A DNA stretch of 39,920 bases. Source: a virus. This document shows positions 29,831-36,247 of this stretch, in pieces. Within the stretch, counting starts at the first letter, position 1. Each line of letters starts with the position of its first letter. The DNA lies in the UHGV virus genome UHGV-1299713, one strand, 5' to 3'. The translations under genes were made by a program, and so were the position numbers. A model generated the notes under the pieces. That model was not told where the DNA came from. It searched no databases and worked only from the letters and a program-made list of their open reading frames with translations.

Positions 29831-29906
29831 ATAATACGATATGTACTTTTGGAATGCAAACAAAAAATACATCTTGTGCATGGATGGCTTTAGTACAGAG
29901 CGTAAT
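29831..29906. promoter_or_regulatory. OR operator region with PR (minus strand -35 TTGCAT, -10 TATTAT, 17-nt spacer)
   Basis: Three candidate 15-bp operators with half-sites A(A/G)TAC-N5-GT(A/G)(C/A)(T/A) at 29833..29847, 29866..29880 and 29892..29906. Confidence 0.45.
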
Positions 29907-29915
29907 AATAAGGAT

Positions 29916-30575
29916 ATGAAAATGAAATGGTATGAACTGGCTAGATCCAGAATGAAAGAACTCGGCATAACTCAAGAGAAGTTAGCTGAAGAGCTTGGTA
30001 TGACGCAGGGTGGAATTGGTCACTGGTTGCGAGGATCTCGTCATCCATCTCTTGACGAGATTGGTGTGGTGTTTAAATACCTTGGTATTGATAACGTCTC
30101 ATTCAACCACGACGGTACATTTTCACCTGTTGGCGAATACTCATCTGCCCCCGTTAAAAAACAATATGAGTACCCTGTTTTTTCTCATGTTCAGGCCGGG
30201 ATGTTCTCGCCTGAGCTTAGAACCTTTACCAAAGGTGATGCGGAGAGATGGGTCAGCACAACCAAAAAAGCCAGTGATTGTGCGTTTTGGCTTGAAGTTG
30301 AAGGTAATTCCATGACAGCACCAACAGGATCCAAGCCAAGCTTTCCTGACGGGATGTTAATTCTAGTTGACCCTGAGCAGGCTGTTGAGCCAGGTGATTT
30401 CTGCATAGCCAGACTTGGTGGTGACGAGTTTACCTTCAAGAAACTGATCAGGGATAGCGGTCAGGTGTTCCTACAACCACTAAACCCGCAATATCCAATG
30501 ATCCCATGCAATGATAGCTGTTCCGTAGTAGGGAAAGTTATCGCCAGCCAGTGGCCTGAAGAGACATTTAGTTAA
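29916..30575 (+). CDS. cI: cI repressor: lambda-type C-terminal domain with a different N-terminal HTH domain
   Basis: C-terminal ~130 aa near-identical to lambda CI; ATG 29916 preceded by AAGGA; the ORF-track start at 29841 lies inside the operator region. Confidence 0.8.
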
Positions 30576-30654: not shown

Positions 30655-30729
30655 AATACAAAGTGTTATAAAAAACCAACCACATTTAGAACATTTTGTA
30701 TTGACTCAATAAAGTACACATCGTACTAT
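30655..30729 (+). promoter_or_regulatory. OL operator region with PL (-35 TTGACT 30701..30706, -10 TACTAT 30724..30729)
   Basis: Operator-like 15-mers at 30655..30669 and 30713..30727 (a perfect palindrome), plus an inverted copy near 30687..30701. Confidence 0.5.
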
Positions 30730-30809: not shown

Positions 30810-30928
30810 AAACAGATACCAAACGAGATGGGTTTGGCGGTGATGTGAATTGCAGCTGCAACGACAGCAACCAGAAGATCAGCATCTGGCGCATCACCAC
30901 CAAAGCCATTTCACATGAGGAAAACATC

Positions 30929-31270
30929 ATGACGGTAATCGTGTACGGGAAATCAACATTCGCAGGAAATGCCAAAACTCGCCGTCATGAGCGGCGCAGA
31001 AAACTGGCTATCGAGCGTGATGCTATATGCAACATCATTGATTCTATCTTCGGCACAGACAGTGAGGAACCTGTTCAGGAAGCCCCAAGAAAGCGTTTAA
31101 GCATTTCTGAAAAAGCAATATCACTCGGAAGCCTTCGCTGCAAGAAGGCAGATGAAGTCGAGCGTAAACAGAACCGTATTTACTACCGCAAGCCACGCAG
31201 TGAAATGGGTGTGACATGCTCAGGCCGCCAGAAGCAACGCGGAAAATCAATTCCAGCTTATTACGATTGA
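30929..31270 (+). CDS. N-like transcription antiterminator (P22 gp24-type)
   Basis: Starts MTVIVYGKSTFAGNAKTRRHERRRKLAIERD, an arginine-rich motif as in N proteins; GAGG 8 nt upstream. Confidence 0.75.
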   Translation: MTVIVYGKSTFAGNAKTRRHERRRKLAIERDAICNIIDSIFGTDSEEPVQEAPRKRLSISEKAISLGSLRCKKADEVERKQNRIYYRKPRSEMGVTCSGRQKQRGKSIPAYYD

Positions 31271-31278
31271 GGTGAGCC

Positions 31279-31416
31279 ATGCTCAAGAAAGTCAAACGCC
31301 GACTTTACAAAGAAGGTAGATATTCATGCCAATTGCCAAAATGCGACACAGCAAAATGGAGTGTCGACGATTGGTGTAACTGGATAGATAGATACGGAAC
31401 TTGGTGGGATAAATAA
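31279..31416 (+). CDS. Small hypothetical protein (45 aa, Trp/Cys-containing)
   Basis: ATG 9 nt after the N stop with GAGGTGAG upstream; read by eye. Confidence 0.3.
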   Translation: MLKKVKRRLYKEGRYSCQLPKCDTAKWSVDDWCNWIDRYGTWWDK

Positions 31417-31471
31417 CAGGTAACTTAAGCGGATTTATTTTCGCAGCAAACCACTGTATGAGGGGTGAGAT

Positions 31472-31603
31472 ATGAGCTACCAAATTCAATACAGAAGTTG
31501 CGGTAGATGGGTTTGCGGAAACTCTTTCAAAACAAAAGAACAGGCTGAGCAATACGCAAAACAAACAGGTCAGGATTATCAAATTGTAAAGACAAGGAGA
31601 TAA
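31472..31603 (+). CDS. Small Cys-containing protein (43 aa) whose stop overlaps the RBS of the next gene
   Basis: MSYQIQYRSCGRWVCGNSF...; stop TAA at 31601..31603 directly precedes ATG 31605. Confidence 0.35.
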   Translation: MSYQIQYRSCGRWVCGNSFKTKEQAEQYAKQTGQDYQIVKTRR

Positions 31604-31604
31604 C

Positions 31605-32462
31605 ATGCCAGGATTTACAAGTAAATTCATACCAAGAAGAGAATTCAAGCATAATCCAGAAAGACTAAATGTTATTTCTTCCGGTGGTGGAACTCAAAGT
31701 AACGCAATAATCTGCTTAGTACATGCTGGCGTTCTTCCAAAGCCTGACATTATCGTTATGTCAGATACAGAACGTGAGGCAAGTAATGTATTTGAATATC
31801 AGAAAAAATATATAGCTCCTATTTGTGAAGATATGGGTGTTGATTACCTGATTGTTCCTAAAAGTAGATTTGCTACCTACGACATTGATGGGCCTGATCC
31901 AGACGTTCCTCTACCTGGATATTTCACAGAATACGAGGGAAGGGATTCAAAAGGAATGTGCGCTGGAAAGCAACCAGCATTTTGTTCTATAAAGTGGAAA
32001 ACTGAAGTTATTCAGAGATTTTTAAATGAAAGATATGGAGAGAAGTATCTTACAGCAAGAGGAGTGGATAGTTGGATGGGGATAAGCATTGAAGAGGCTA
32101 AACGAAGAGCGAAATACCCAACTGGCAAGTGGCAGAGGCGCTATCCACTTATTGAAATGCTAATGACTAAACAGATGGCAATTCAATGTGTCGAGGATTA
32201 TGGTCTTCCTACACCACCTGCCTCGCTTTGCTGGATGTGCCCTAACAGAGATGATGATCTGTGGCTTTATATGAAAAATAACGTCCCATCTGATTTTGAA
32301 AGAGCATGTCAGCATGAAAAAGAGATACAAATGAAGTGGCCTCATTTGTGGCTTACTAAATATGGTGTTCCACTATCTGAGGCACCACTAACACCTAGTG
32401 GTGGTAAAAATGCACAAATGGATCTTATACAATTCTGCGATTCTGGACTGTGCTTCGCTTAA
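31605..32462 (+). CDS. PAPS-reductase-like / PP-loop ATP pyrophosphatase family protein
   Basis: PP-loop-like SSGGGTQSNAI near the N-terminus and C-terminal Cys motifs (CAGKQPAFC, CWMCPN); AAGGAGA RBS; AT-rich DNA. Confidence 0.7.
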   Translation: MPGFTSKFIPRREFKHNPERLNVISSGGGTQSNAIICLVHAGVLPKPDIIVMSDTEREASNVFEYQKKYIAPICEDMGVDYLIVPKSRFATYDIDGPDPDVPLPGYFTEYEGRDSKGMCAGKQPAFCSIKWKTEVIQRFLNERYGEKYLTARGVDSWMGISIEEAKRRAKYPTGKWQRRYPLIEMLMTKQMAIQCVEDYGLPTPPASLCWMCPNRDDDLWLYMKNNVPSDFERACQHEKEIQMKWPHLWLTKYGVPLSEAPLTPSGGKNAQMDLIQFCDSGLCFA

Positions 32463-32598
32463 GCCGCATAACCCATTAGAGCAGAAATATTCGCTAATTA
32501 AAATTGAAAGAATAATTTCATTTATAAACCAGTTCCCTGAATCTTACCTGTTTTGCGATGGTGACCGGGAAATAGCAGAGATTAAGTTTGAGGAATGA
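32410..32598 (+). CDS. Small hypothetical protein (62 aa) overlapping the 3' end of the upstream gene
   Basis: Stop codon 2 nt before a palindromic terminator; weak RBS. Confidence 0.3.
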   Translation: MHKWILYNSAILDCASLKPHNPLEQKYSLIKIERIISFINQFPESYLFCDGDREIAEIKFEE

Positions 32599-32599
32599 A

Positions 32600-32625
32600 G
32601 CCGAATATTCGGCCTTTACTTTTGG
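32600..32625 (+). terminator. Rho-independent terminator (perfect palindrome GCCGAATATTCGGC then CTTTACTTTT)
   Basis: Read directly from the sequence. Confidence 0.5.
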
Positions 32626-32742
32626 CATAAATAACAGAATAAATACTGCACTGTGTATTCATTCCAACGAGTGAATACACGGAGCAATGTCGCTCGTAAC
32701 TAAACAGGAGCCGACTTGTTCTGATTATTGGAAATCTTCTTT

Positions 32743-32769
32743 GCCCTCCAGTGTGAGGGCAATTTTTTT
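32743..32769 (+). terminator. Second intrinsic terminator (GCCCTC-CAGTGT-GAGGGC then AATTTTTTT)
   Basis: Read directly; lies inside the N-terminal extension of ORF 32728..33198, arguing for the later start. Confidence 0.45.
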
Positions 32770-32781
32770 GATGGAGGAATG

Positions 32782-33198
32782 ATGGAAATTACAGATATTC
32801 TGGTTAATCCAGATAATTACGACCAATTCAATATCTCTACTCAATCAGTTGATTTGGGATGTGCAACTGTCAGCGCATGGCTACTTAATGGTAAACAGTT
32901 GGATAAATGCCTTGATGCACATATGACGGTTAACAGCTTCCTTGCAGAAAAAACACACTGGCAAGATGCTGGAGGGAAATATGCTGGATGGCTTGAAAGC
33001 ATGGGGTTTGAATATCAATCTGATGAAGGTTGGTGGAGCCTCATAGCTGTAACGCCTGAGACAATAGAATGCTTCGTTAAATACTCAAACGACGATGACT
33101 ATAAACACCAGGTGGATTCTGCGATAGAAAGATACAAAAGAAAATCGTTCAACCACGAAATATCATCAGTTCTTGATTTCATAGAAATCTTCAAATAA
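32782..33198 (+). CDS. Hypothetical acidic protein (start at MEITDILVNPD)
   Basis: GGAGG 4 nt upstream of the ATG. Confidence 0.5.
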   Translation: MEITDILVNPDNYDQFNISTQSVDLGCATVSAWLLNGKQLDKCLDAHMTVNSFLAEKTHWQDAGGKYAGWLESMGFEYQSDEGWWSLIAVTPETIECFVKYSNDDDYKHQVDSAIERYKRKSFNHEISSVLDFIEIFK

Positions 33199-33706: not shown

Positions 33707-34414
33707 ATGGATTTGAATAAATTCGATGAGCCATTCAGCCCTGAAGATATCGAATGGCGAATACAGCAAAGCGGTAAAACACGCGATGGCAAAGTGTGGG
33801 CTATGGTGCTGGCTTATGTCACGAACAGGGCAATCATGAAACGCCTGGACGATGTTTGTGGCAAAGCAGGATGGCGCAATGAATACCGCGATATTCCTAA
33901 CAACGGCGGCGTTGAATGCGGCATATCAATCAGGATTGATTCCGAATGGGTAACCAAATGGGATGCCGCTGAAAACACGCAGGTAGAAGCCGTAAAAGGT
34001 GGTCGTTCCGGTGCAATGAAGCGCGCTGCCGTTCAGTGGGGAATCGGTCGGTATCTGTATAACCTTGGGGAAGGTTTCGCACAAACATCTCTCGATAAAA
34101 AGCAGGGATGGCACAGGGCAAAACTCAAGGATGGAACAGGGTTTTACTGGCTCCCTCCATCGCTGCCGGGATGGGCAGTCCCAGAATCAGATAACAAACC
34201 ATCACCAGAAAATACCAACCAGAAATCTCCATCGGTTGACTGCGAACAAATCCTGAAAGACTTCAGCGATTATGCGTCAACAGAAACTGACAAGAAAAAA
34301 CTCATCGAGCGTTATCAGCGTGACTGGCAATTAATGGCTGGCAACGAGGAGGCGCAGGCTAAATGCGTTCAGGTAATGAACATCAGAGTTAACGAACTAA
34401 AACAGGCGGCATAA
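33707..34414 (+). CDS. Putative single-strand annealing protein, Rad52/Sak-like
   Basis: Sits in the erf/bet position immediately upstream of ssb; GIGRYLYNL-like motif; family assignment from memory. Confidence 0.65.
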   Translation: MDLNKFDEPFSPEDIEWRIQQSGKTRDGKVWAMVLAYVTNRAIMKRLDDVCGKAGWRNEYRDIPNNGGVECGISIRIDSEWVTKWDAAENTQVEAVKGGRSGAMKRAAVQWGIGRYLYNLGEGFAQTSLDKKQGWHRAKLKDGTGFYWLPPSLPGWAVPESDNKPSPENTNQKSPSVDCEQILKDFSDYASTETDKKKLIERYQRDWQLMAGNEEAQAKCVQVMNIRVNELKQAA

Positions 34415-34888
34415 ATGGCAAGCAGAGGCGTAAATAAGGTGATCATTATTGGTCGCCTTGGGCATGATCCAGAAATCAGATATTCACCATCAGGAACGGC
34501 ATTTGCAAACCTTACAGTTGCTACGTCAGAACAATGGCGTGATAAGCAAACTGGAGAGCAAAAGGAGCAGACGGAGTGGCACCGTGTGGTAATGAGCGGG
34601 AAACTAGCAGAAATTGCCAGCGAGTACCTGCGAAAAGGCTCAGAGGTTTATCTTGAAGGCAAATTGCGGACAAGAAAATGGCAGGATCAAAGCGGACAGG
34701 ATCGGTTCACTACCGAAATCATCGTGGGCGTTGGTGGAACCATGCAAATGCTTGGTGGCAAGCAAGGAGGCAATGAACAGTCTTCACCTCAGCGAAATAA
34801 CGGTCAGCAACAAAGACAGCAACCTCAGCAGCAGGGAAATCACAGCGAACCACCTATGAACTTCGACGATTCGGATATTCCGTTCTAG
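34415..34888 (+). CDS. ssb: Single-stranded DNA-binding protein
   Basis: OB-fold N-terminus [27 protein letters not shown], Gly/Gln-rich linker, acidic tip DDSDIPF. Confidence 0.9.
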
Positions 34889-34897
34889 GAGCTGAAT

Positions 34898-35377
34898 ATG
34901 AAAATCTGCTCAAGATGCCATCAACAGAAGGAAGAAAGGGACTTTCAAATCAGAAGAGCATCCAGAGATGGATTAACTGCCGCTTGCCGGGCTTGCCTGG
35001 CTGAATACGACAAAGAGCGCGCGGGATTGCCACATCGAGTATCAGCAAGGAGAGAATATCAATCATCGGAACGCGGCAGAGAACGGTGTAACGCAGCCAA
35101 AAAGCGGTTCATTCAGAGCAACCCATGGAAAAGAAAAGCCCACATCATCGTGGGTAATTTTTTGCGCGACGGTAAGCTAATCCGACCACCACAATGTGAG
35201 TGCTGCGGATCAGAATGTAAACCACAGGCGCACCACTGCGACTACAGCAAACCAACCGATGTGATGTGGCTCTGCAAGTCATGTCATGTCGAGTGGCACA
35301 AACATAACAAACCTATCTACCCAGACGAGGAGCCAGTAACGCTCCCCTTCCCTCGTCACGCTATTCACGCAATTTAA
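34898..35377 (+). CDS. HNH-type (His-Me finger) nuclease-like zinc-binding protein
   Basis: Paired CxxC motifs flanking HHCDYS...H. Confidence 0.55.
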   Translation: MKICSRCHQQKEERDFQIRRASRDGLTAACRACLAEYDKERAGLPHRVSARREYQSSERGRERCNAAKKRFIQSNPWKRKAHIIVGNFLRDGKLIRPPQCECCGSECKPQAHHCDYSKPTDVMWLCKSCHVEWHKHNKPIYPDEEPVTLPFPRHAIHAI

Positions 35378-35385
35378 GGACCTAC

Positions 35386-35934
35386 ATGAATCACTTAATG
35401 GTTGACCTTGAAACAATGGGCAACGGGCCATACGCGCCTGTTATTTCTATTGGGGCGGTGTTCTTTGACCCGAATACCGGAGAAACAGGAGAAGAGTTCT
35501 CGGTAAATATCTCGCTTGAGTCATCAATGCGATATCGGGCGCGTCCTGACGCTTCAACGATTTTATGGTGGATGGAACAGAGTGAAGAAGCCAGAAAATC
35601 GTTAACCAGCAACACTCAGGAGCTTTCAACGGCTCTTTCATGGTTATCTGAATTCATCATAAAGAACGCTAACCACAAATTCGTTCAGGTTTGGGGGAAT
35701 GGAGCATCATTTGACTGCGTTATTCTCCGCAACAGTTATTCGCTGACAGGGCAGCCAGTTCCGTGGCAGTGGTGGAATGACCGCGACGTAAGAACAATCG
35801 TCGAGCTTGGAAAGGTAATAGGATTCGACCCTAAGCGAGATATGCCATTCAAAGGAACTCGCCACAACGCGCTTGATGATGCCATCCACCAAGCCAAATA
35901 CGTTTCAGCAATCTGGAAAAAATTAGCTAAATAA
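35386..35934 (+). CDS. DnaQ-like DEDDh 3'-5' exonuclease
   Basis: Exo I VDLET, Exo II GNGASFD, Exo III HNALDDA. Confidence 0.7.
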   Translation: MNHLMVDLETMGNGPYAPVISIGAVFFDPNTGETGEEFSVNISLESSMRYRARPDASTILWWMEQSEEARKSLTSNTQELSTALSWLSEFIIKNANHKFVQVWGNGASFDCVILRNSYSLTGQPVPWQWWNDRDVRTIVELGKVIGFDPKRDMPFKGTRHNALDDAIHQAKYVSAIWKKLAK

Positions 35935-35950
35935 TCAACAGGAGAAAAAT

Positions 35951-36247
35951 ATGCCAGCGCCTCTGTATGGTGCGGATGACCCGCGCCGCTGTTCCGGCAA
36001 TTCCGTATCGGAGGTGCTGGATAAATTCAGGAAAAACTACGACCGGATAATGTCGCTACCGCAGGAAACGAAAGAGGAAAAGGAATTTCGCCACTGTATA
36101 TGGCTTGCAGAGAAAGAAGAACGCGAGCGAATTTACCAGACATCAATCCGACCATTCCGCAAAGCCACATATACCCACTTCCCTGAATATATCGACCCGC
36201 GCCTGCGTAATTACCGCTCACGCTATGGCGCTATCAGTAATGACTGA
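35951..36247 (+). CDS. Hypothetical protein
   Basis: 98-aa ORF in the early-left operon. Confidence 0.45.

Follow-up and report, generated by a model that had tools for sequence, protein, structure and literature searches.

Results

A rare accessory cassette in the ral slot

The window analysed here, the 39,920-nucleotide virus genome UHGV-1299713, is a P22/lambda-like prophage of Escherichia coli type whose early-left operon carries, in the slot of the restriction-alleviation gene ral, a cassette with a divergent enzyme of the 3'-phosphoadenosine 5'-phosphosulfate (PAPS) reductase fold. We describe it with high confidence as an early-operon accessory cassette holding three real genes, the largest of which encodes a 285-amino-acid (aa) enzyme from a family found on mobile elements. 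As to its role, we assign a probability of roughly 40% to a counter-restriction factor acting on nucleic acid, most likely DNA. The elements of the cassette are the following.

31475..32599, no strand assigned: mosaic cassette without Sf6 counterpart, replacing ral and gene 34 (Sf6 alignment)
31472..31603, + strand: 43-aa small early protein (PHROG 15891 at 5e-5)
31605..32462, + strand: 285-aa stand-alone enzyme with SSGGGTQS, DTxxE, Cys127, Cys209-x-x-Cys212 and the tail cysteines Cys278 and Cys283
32410..32598, + strand: 62-aa small protein from ATG 32410 (66 aa from GTG 32398), overlapping the 3' end of the enzyme gene

The limits of the cassette follow from an alignment to phage Sf6 of Shigella. 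Homology to Sf6 stops at window position 31474 and picks up at 32600, with 1,125 bp between, and nothing in the window corresponds to the Sf6 segment with ral (gene 35) and gene 34 (L002 2696-3450). The G+C content is 36-42% within the cassette compared with 44-51% in the flanks. Other backbones (L001, L009-L014) carry the cassette too, with similarity to the window setting in at 31443, and seven IMG/VR contigs with differing backbones carry it with 93-100% amino-acid identity in the enzyme. At the DNA level it was found in none of 50,697 phage records and in 2 of 5,426 complete E. coli genomes; its flanks are present in 2,241 genomes, commonly surrounding ral. The cassette is a rare, mosaic accessory unit in an exchangeable slot between N/DUF5484 and the tL2 boundary. 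With Ral, the restriction-alleviation protein of lambda and Sf6, it shares this slot and the early-left operon, while no DNA homology extends across the slot and the Sf6 ral gene, at 201 bp, encodes a small product as opposed to a 285-aa enzyme. Sequence homology does not place the cassette in the Ral family; the slot alone is in common.

All three open reading frames (ORFs) are real genes under purifying selection. Measured against the 83%-identical cassette of locus L013, the enzyme has a ratio of nonsynonymous to synonymous substitution rates (dN/dS) of 0.029; the 43-aa ORF stands at 0.015 and the 62-aa ORF, in its non-overlapping core, at 0.126, with control frames above 1.6. The N-terminal part of the 62-aa ORF that overlaps the enzyme is unconstrained (dN/dS 1.1), and its conserved core begins at about 32464. 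The stop codon of the 43-aa ORF (TAA, 31601-31603) falls between the AAGGAG Shine-Dalgarno sequence (31594-31599) and the enzyme ATG at 31605, a layout for translational coupling. Both small proteins are kept in locus L018, a cassette of 72% DNA identity, in which the 43-aa protein has 56% amino-acid identity and the downstream protein is 46 aa, its ATG overlapping the enzyme TGA.

Much of this agrees with the original prediction, which had been drawn from the letters of the window: the three ORFs, the stop codon lying within the ribosome-binding region of the enzyme gene, the AT-rich composition, the ral position downstream of an N-like gene and the location of two terminator-like hairpins and an inverted repeat with a 9-bp perfect core. 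Also in its favour, the cassette is rare and uncharacterised. Its limits, however, have to be redrawn. The start given at 31279 belongs to a separate backbone gene (DUF5484), and the mobile unit spans 31475-32599. Nor is the unit bounded by terminators, there being none upstream, while both terminators and the repeat are conserved backbone that follows ral in Sf6.

The enzyme represents a divergent branch of the PAPS-reductase fold

The AlphaFold2 model of the enzyme, built from 42 homologues, provides a confident view of a single domain with a disordered C-terminal tail (predicted local distance difference test score 90, predicted template modelling score 0.87). Its best viral structural neighbours (BFVD) are phage PAPS reductases, and QueC is a fold relative. 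With a Rossmann-like alpha/beta fold and a glycine-rich loop after the first strand, the enzyme belongs to the adenine-nucleotide alpha-hydrolase (PP-loop/PAPS-reductase) superfamily. In the alignment of homologues down to 24% identity, 25 positions are invariant, five cysteines among them: S25, G27, G29, Q31, G42, D54, T55, E58, P104, C127, K132, G159, E164, R168, P181, L182, P204, S207, C209, C212, P213, P256, C278, G281 and C283. The two motifs singled out from the sequence at the outset, SSGGGTQS (residues 25-32) and the C-terminal CxxC (CWMC, 209-212), are both invariant across homologues. The P-loop has the form S-[SLM]-G-[GA]-G-[TV]-Q-S, with Gln31 where PP-loop ATP pyrophosphatases have Asp. 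The canonical PP-loop, SGGxDS with its Mg-binding Asp, is absent from the enzyme, which in this respect departs from the PP-loop ATP pyrophosphatases and from the PP-loop assignment first proposed.

Sequence libraries recover little of this family. PHROG 424, labelled PAPS reductase, matches the whole protein at 6e-35. The Pfam match to PF01507 that the original prediction had set as its test failed: the enzyme has no Pfam match at E <= 0.1, PF01507 included, and 4 of the 42 homologues reach PF01507 below threshold (best E 0.002). NCBIfam gives no match and the RefSeq label is hypothetical; single-protein searches of Pfam, NCBIfam and PDB sequences returned nothing usable. By profile, a weak PDB match (E 0.02 to 4e-5) was obtained to the 270-aa protein PptA (21fy_C), the closest solved sequence relative, which has a GxSxDE..R and CxxC region in common with the enzyme family; what PptA (PDB 21fy) is was not found in the searchable literature. 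A further PDB profile match, to 'CAP REPEAT', was discarded as a repeat artefact. Single-sequence search gathers 97 clusters and profile search 530, while a distant member used as query gathers at least 7,780, with no precomputed Pfam domain in the 120 matches listed. By these searches the enzyme falls on an outlying branch of a very large family beyond the coverage of Pfam.

The invariant residues suggest a working site. The modified P-loop and the DTxxE motif would bind an adenine nucleotide or sulfonucleotide. APS (adenosine 5'-phosphosulfate) reductase holds its iron-sulfur cluster through CC...CxxC ligands, and CysH carries its catalytic cysteine in a C-terminal ECG(L/I)H motif. Cys127, Cys209 and Cys212 stand in sequence contexts like those of the APS reductase [4Fe-4S] ligands, and an iron-sulfur cluster is probably bound there; alternatively, the three cysteines could form a cluster that leaves one iron site open, in the manner of TtuA. 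The invariant tail cysteines may serve as a mobile thiol or persulfide arm like the CysH ECGLH tail.

Comparison with known sulfur enzymes

The nearest defence-related relative appears to be SspD, the PAPS-reductase-like subunit of SspABCD single-strand DNA phosphorothioation, although at the level of hidden Markov models (HMMs) the scores are weak. The PADLOC SspD model reaches the enzyme at 3.1e-7 (28 bits, a low score). All 42 family members match it, the best at 8e-21, over model positions 3-220 of 277, and the best score beyond those 42 is 69 bits. SspD is the sole PADLOC model that the family matches, apart from one of the 42 that also has a marginal methyltransferase match (E 0.0095). 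Lengths are alike (about 250-285 aa compared with the 277-position model) and the C...CxxC region is common to both. Unlike SspD, the family has a SxGxGxQS P-loop, scores only 28-69 bits and is carried by phages and plasmids in early or leading regions. Across the 87 loci in which the enzyme was detected (88 were fetched), no family member stands beside sspA, sspB, sspC or sspE, and the sspABCD(-E/FGH) operon setting was not encountered. No cysteine desulfurase occurs among the neighbours scanned with Pfam or PHROGs, most one-off neighbours being left unannotated. The match scores speak for a relative rather than an orthologue. The kinship to DNA-sulfur-modification proteins that had been anticipated thus holds in part, for SspD with weak scores, and does not extend to the DndC, TtcA and CysH models.

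DndC and BrxP, of the Dnd and type 4 BREX systems, are members of the same superfamily and iron-sulfur proteins implicated in DNA sulfur insertion (PMC8569181; PMC12839542). None of the 42 members has a PADLOC match to DndC (E <= 0.01), and neither an NCBIfam match nor dnd neighbours were found; the BrxP model likewise matches neither the enzyme nor the 42 members (E <= 0.01). While BrxP is much larger and fused to DUF4007 (PMC12839542), the enzyme is a single domain of 285 aa without linked partner genes.

NCBIfam CysH/APS reductase models do not match the enzyme, and 1 of the 42 members has a weak PRK02090 match (E 0.0014). Alignment by hhalign to E. coli CysH, whose sequence was checked against PDB 2o8v, covers only 44 N-terminal columns (the P-loop and DT motif) at 17% probability. 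The tail of the family reads FCDSGxCF or, in most relatives, ECEGMCG, and reproduces neither ECGLH nor the Cys-Cys dyad; APS reductase has that dyad where the enzyme has a single Cys, and the context of the enzyme is not metabolic. For the [4Fe-4S] tRNA thiolases TtuA, TtcA and NcsA the similarity is structural only, with no TtcA/TtuA match in Pfam or NCBIfam. Cysteines in TtuA are ordered CxxC...C. The enzyme has the reverse order, C...CxxC, and does not keep SGGxDS; no Pfam zinc-ribbon model matches it, and 1 of the 42 members has such a match. With the phage 'PAPS reductase' genes (PHROG 424; PF01507-type) it shares the PHROG match, structural likeness and placement in variable regions, but it falls outside PF01507 in a separate large branch with its own set of invariant motifs.

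Genomic context of the family

The family is borne by mobile elements and stands repeatedly close to antirestriction and DNA-modification genes. Temperate phages that infect Enterobacterales, Vibrio and other hosts carry its members in their early operons; examples are a lambdoid prophage of Serratia, a P2-like prophage of Vibrio with the gene just upstream of gpA, and unknown phages. Of 83 viral loci, 58 have their upstream neighbour in the same orientation, and the median spacing is -4 nt. Genes lying no more than 4 kb away include ParB-like ones at 14 of the 87 loci, DNA methyltransferases at 15 and DpdA-like genes at 3. Clustering of all neighbours over this distance disclosed no obligatory partner gene; the only families to recur were those of the phage backbone, ParB-like genes, DpdA-like genes and methyltransferases. 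In the early operons of phages the enzyme is generally found by itself.

On an Agrobacterium conjugative pAt plasmid (L092 6018-7810), the start of the family gene overlaps the stop of ArdC, an antirestriction gene (ArdcN 6e-42 and a zincin metallopeptidase domain), with traG close by; this is one of 110 Agrobacterium plasmid records among the tblastn matches, and the family is found on 231 plasmid records. A Mesorhizobium phage-plasmid (L093 5479-6798) has one annotated ORF of 439 aa in which the N-terminal third of a C5 cytosine methyltransferase (PF00145 4-115) is joined to a full-length family member. The Serratia prophage (L003 4202-6858) carries ParB-like, ParE-like and DpdA-like transglycosylase genes (the last PHROG 887, 6e-92) and then the enzyme homologue, which starts one base past the DpdA-like stop; a second, independent DpdA-like co-occurrence is seen in L044. 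The association with DpdA is real in two lineages and rare, and for the L003 lineage it suggests a possible link to 7-deazaguanine DNA modification. Relatives of about 25% identity (L090 7818-8270; L091 2592-8883) lie beside nucleoside 2-deoxyribosyltransferase, S-adenosylmethionine synthetase, ThyX-like, deoxynucleoside monophosphate (dNMP) kinase and deoxynucleoside kinase genes. Genes of this kind are characteristic of phages with remodelled nucleotide pools or modified DNA.

The small proteins accompany the enzyme only in its closest clade

The closest clade is the only one to which the three-gene module of the original prediction applies. When six-frame translations were searched with BLAST and HMMs, both small proteins turned up in 10 of the 87 enzyme loci, all with at least 80% enzyme identity. 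Elsewhere the enzyme occurs without the small ORFs, and 43-aa homologues occur without the enzyme. The latter are among the first early genes of virulent Autographiviridae, as in Pantoea phage Nufs112 (ORF6, L088 1857-1988), and were found in Nufs112 and 12 other phage records at 42-60% identity. Neither cysteine of the 43-aa protein is conserved in its L018 counterpart. For the 62-aa protein the libraries gave no family match and the phage records no further homologue. The 43-aa protein looks like an independent small early protein family (PHROG 15891). Rather than obligatory subunits, the two are probably small early products in their own right or helpers specific to the clade. The small proteins were also considered as general partners of the enzyme, and this was rejected given their confinement to the closest clade.

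Transcription and the conserved right flank

The features on either side of the cassette are listed below.

30701..30729, + strand: pL-like promoter TTGACT-17-TACTAT between the cI-like gene and N (consensus scan only)
30845..31270, + strand: N-like antiterminator gene, backbone (Pfam N_peptide 1.1e-25; PHROG 271 at 1.5e-48)
31279..31416, + strand: 45-aa DUF5484 gene, backbone (Pfam DUF5484 1.3e-11; 98% identity to Sf6 gene 36)
32600..32623, + strand: short GC hairpin (32600-32613) with T-rich tail, weak terminator-like, opening the conserved right flank (scan)
32647..32686, no strand assigned: inverted repeat with 18-nt arms (32647-32664 and 32669-32686), 83% complementary, 9-bp perfect core
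32741..32769, + strand: canonical intrinsic terminator with 8-bp stem and T7 (hairpin 32741-32762), homologue of Sf6/lambda tL2A

The placement of the pL-like match agrees with the annotated PL of Sf6. A consensus scan found no terminator-like site from pL to 32600, and so none upstream of the cassette. For a promoter of its own the cassette offers weak 9-of-12 matches only, no commoner than in shuffled sequence. Since no convincing own promoter is present and no terminator-like site intervenes between pL and 32600, the cassette is most likely co-transcribed with N from pL as soon as infection or induction begins.

On the right, the terminators and the inverted repeat are conserved bsq4/tL2A backbone outside the mobile unit, because Sf6 homology resumes at 32600 and bsq4/tL2A follows ral there also. 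The Sf6 annotation of this flank reads 'bsq4 boundary sequence', with terminator tL2A within or next to bsq4. The region 32590-32780 folds with a z-score of -5.8 against shuffles, and the scanned region holds 8 terminator-like sites as opposed to 2.6 +/- 1.4 in shuffles. Two related phages, L009 and L011, have extra DNA inserted between 32638 and 32648, that is, between the first hairpin and the long inverted repeat, which suggests that the hairpin block (bsq4/tL2A) serves as a recombination joint for cassette exchange.

Discussion

Proposed role and alternatives

The position of the cassette and the company that its family keeps point to a candidate counter-restriction factor acting on nucleic acid, most likely DNA. 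The cassette would be transcribed from pL with N at the outset of infection or induction. The enzyme would bind a nucleotide via its modified P-loop and DTxxE motif, carry an iron-sulfur cluster and pass sulfur, supplied by host donors such as IscS, through its tail cysteines. In this way it might perform or subvert a sulfur-type modification of nucleic acid, most likely of DNA, so that incoming or replicating phage DNA would be protected, or phosphorothioate-based (Dnd/Ssp) or other restriction neutralised. The adjacency to ArdC on plasmids and the DNA-modification genes nearby in phages argue for a place in the conflict between restriction and anti-restriction. A more specific form of the proposal, a self-contained, single-polypeptide nucleic-acid sulfur-modification enzyme that places a phosphorothioate or thio-base mark on its own DNA, or erases or mimics a host mark, we regard as doubtful.

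Several points weigh against the counter-restriction role. For the family as a whole this role is read from sequence patterns and structural models, with low SspD scores (28-69 bits), and the SspA/B/C or DndA/D/E partner genes are never adjacent in the 87 loci. As the ATP-pyrophosphatase Asp of SGGxDS is replaced, ATP-dependent adenylation of the kind seen with DndC or TtuA cannot be taken for granted. Iron-sulfur binding and the clustering of the cysteines in space are predictions from the sequence pattern. The neighbourhood associations are moderate and partly confounded by lineage, and the methyltransferase fusion of L093, a single annotated ORF, is possibly a frameshift artefact. The promoter and terminator scans operate at consensus level only and are blind to Rho-dependent termination. 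Finally, a published statement on Dnd evasion, given below, concerns an unspecified phage PAPS reductase, and its primary source was not traced.

Were the enzyme to act on RNA, it would be a stand-alone iron-sulfur thiolase like TtuA, TtcA or NcsA, working on host or phage RNA early in infection, where it could tune translation or make tRNAs resistant to anticodon nucleases. Three cysteines able to hold a [4Fe-4S] cluster with an open iron site, the additional tail cysteines and the lack of conserved partner genes would suit such an enzyme. We consider it unlikely, as the TtcA and TtuA models of NCBIfam and Pfam do not match, the SGGxDS needed to adenylate the target base is altered, no PUA or THUMP match was found and the neighbours (methyltransferases, ParB, DpdA, ArdC) are DNA-centred; the zinc fingers that flank TtuA are probably absent too, because no Pfam zinc-ribbon model matches the enzyme. 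In a further alternative, the protein is a decoy, a non-catalytic look-alike of SspD or DndC that would bind and poison host phosphorothioation or restriction complexes. Likeness to SspD without the canonical ATP-pyrophosphatase Asp is what a decoy would show, but 25 invariant residues down to 24% identity, with pocket-type motifs and five cysteines among them, form the pattern of a working enzyme and leave the decoy highly improbable. An accessory enzyme of a 7-deazaguanine (DpdA-type) or other base-hypermodification pathway seems very unlikely: the gene directly follows a DpdA-like gene in the Serratia prophage and lies near another in L044, QueC is a fold relative and distant relatives stand beside nucleoside 2-deoxyribosyltransferase, ThyX-like and dNMP kinase genes, yet DpdA-like genes are limited to 3 of the 87 loci and none was found in the window.

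Two further alternatives concern whom the gene serves and what it makes. The N-to-cIII region of lambdoid phages is a hot spot of accessory genes, and sieB and the 933W Stk gene, from the same general region, benefit the lysogen. A defence or superinfection-exclusion module carried by the prophage for the lysogen, the alternative left standing by the original prediction, would also fit with the membership of SspD-like proteins in defence systems and with the pairing of PAPS reductases and sensors in PANGU-like candidate systems (bioRxiv 10.64898/2026.04.06.716658). It is now disfavoured, and we judge it distinctly unlikely: co-orientation with pL and the lack of a convincing own promoter mean that lysogens should keep the cassette repressed, effector and sensor partners are missing, relatives are found in phages of many hosts and on conjugative plasmids beside an antirestriction gene, and the gene shares an operon with replication or recombination genes at the majority of loci. 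An auxiliary metabolic gene that serves sulfur assimilation through a genuine APS/PAPS reductase is improbable to a like degree. The P-loop variant and DT motif do align with E. coli CysH, the C...CxxC motif and the C-terminal EC-x-G-x-CG of relatives recall APS reductase, and the literature reads such genes as auxiliary metabolic (PMC13369170; bioRxiv 10.64898/2026.02.18.706556). The CysH/APS reductase HMMs nevertheless failed, save for the one weak PRK02090 match, the CysH alignment did not go beyond the 44 columns at 17%, and E. coli already has cysH; moreover, the immediate-early operon and the ArdC, methyltransferase and ParB neighbours are a non-metabolic setting in which no other sulfur-assimilation gene is linked.

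Relation to previous work

PAPS-reductase genes of phages, a constant item in virome papers, are usually taken for sulfur-metabolism auxiliary genes, as in the two reports just cited, while their homologues have also been flagged as probably something else (PMC11437467). They have been placed in Aca-regulated putative anti-defence operons and variable regions, and one phage PAPS reductase is stated to promote Dnd evasion (both bioRxiv 10.64898/2026.07.27.740549). The experiment behind that statement was not traced, and we found in the literature no biochemical or genetic test of the function of a phage 'PAPS reductase'. The main text of the EVADES preprint, which covers 268 anti-defence proteins, makes no mention of PAPS reductase. 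That phages carry PAPS reductase-like accessory genes of open function is known already; the new element is a divergent branch, overlooked by curated libraries, in the classic anti-restriction slot. In lambda itself, what has been described is reportedly an interaction of host sulfur-assimilation proteins with Ren and Rex, and not a lambda-encoded homologue. A citation to the effect that PAPS reductase homologues occur in lambda (Thomason & Court 2022) was followed up, and a lambda-encoded homologue was not confirmed.

For a conserved member of this divergent branch, no available setting is more tractable than the immediate-early pL operon of an E. coli lambdoid/P22-like prophage, where it occupies the ral slot. 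Should the counter-restriction role be correct, thousands of proteins overlooked by Pfam and NCBIfam would be re-annotated, and a new compact chemistry of DNA or RNA sulfur modification might be at hand. If a single polypeptide suffices, it would provide broad anti-restriction with only housekeeping host sulfur donors, and the many 'viral PAPS reductase' auxiliary metabolic genes of virome studies would be counter-defence and not sulfur metabolism.

Other genes of the window

The prophage also holds the following two genes.

141-1334: integrase
29841-30575: cI-like repressor

An Rfam scan of the window gave no match. An antisense ORF of 118 aa (31292-31648, minus strand) is probably not a gene, as it runs antisense across the DUF5484 gene, the 43-aa ORF and the beginning of the enzyme gene, each of which is under purifying selection in its own frame; its recurrence in related loci comes only from conservation of the sense genes. 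To the right of the cassette, a 156-aa ORF at 32728-33198 (PHROG 8967, 6e-87) replaces Sf6 gene 33. Because its family match begins only at residue 19, the true start is probably near 32770-32782, immediately 3' of the tL2A-like terminator. Further downstream, on the same strand and in the same operon (33707-36247), lie genes for a Rad52-family annealase, SSB, an Rv2179c-like 3'-5' exonuclease and the P22-type anti-RecBCD protein Abc2.

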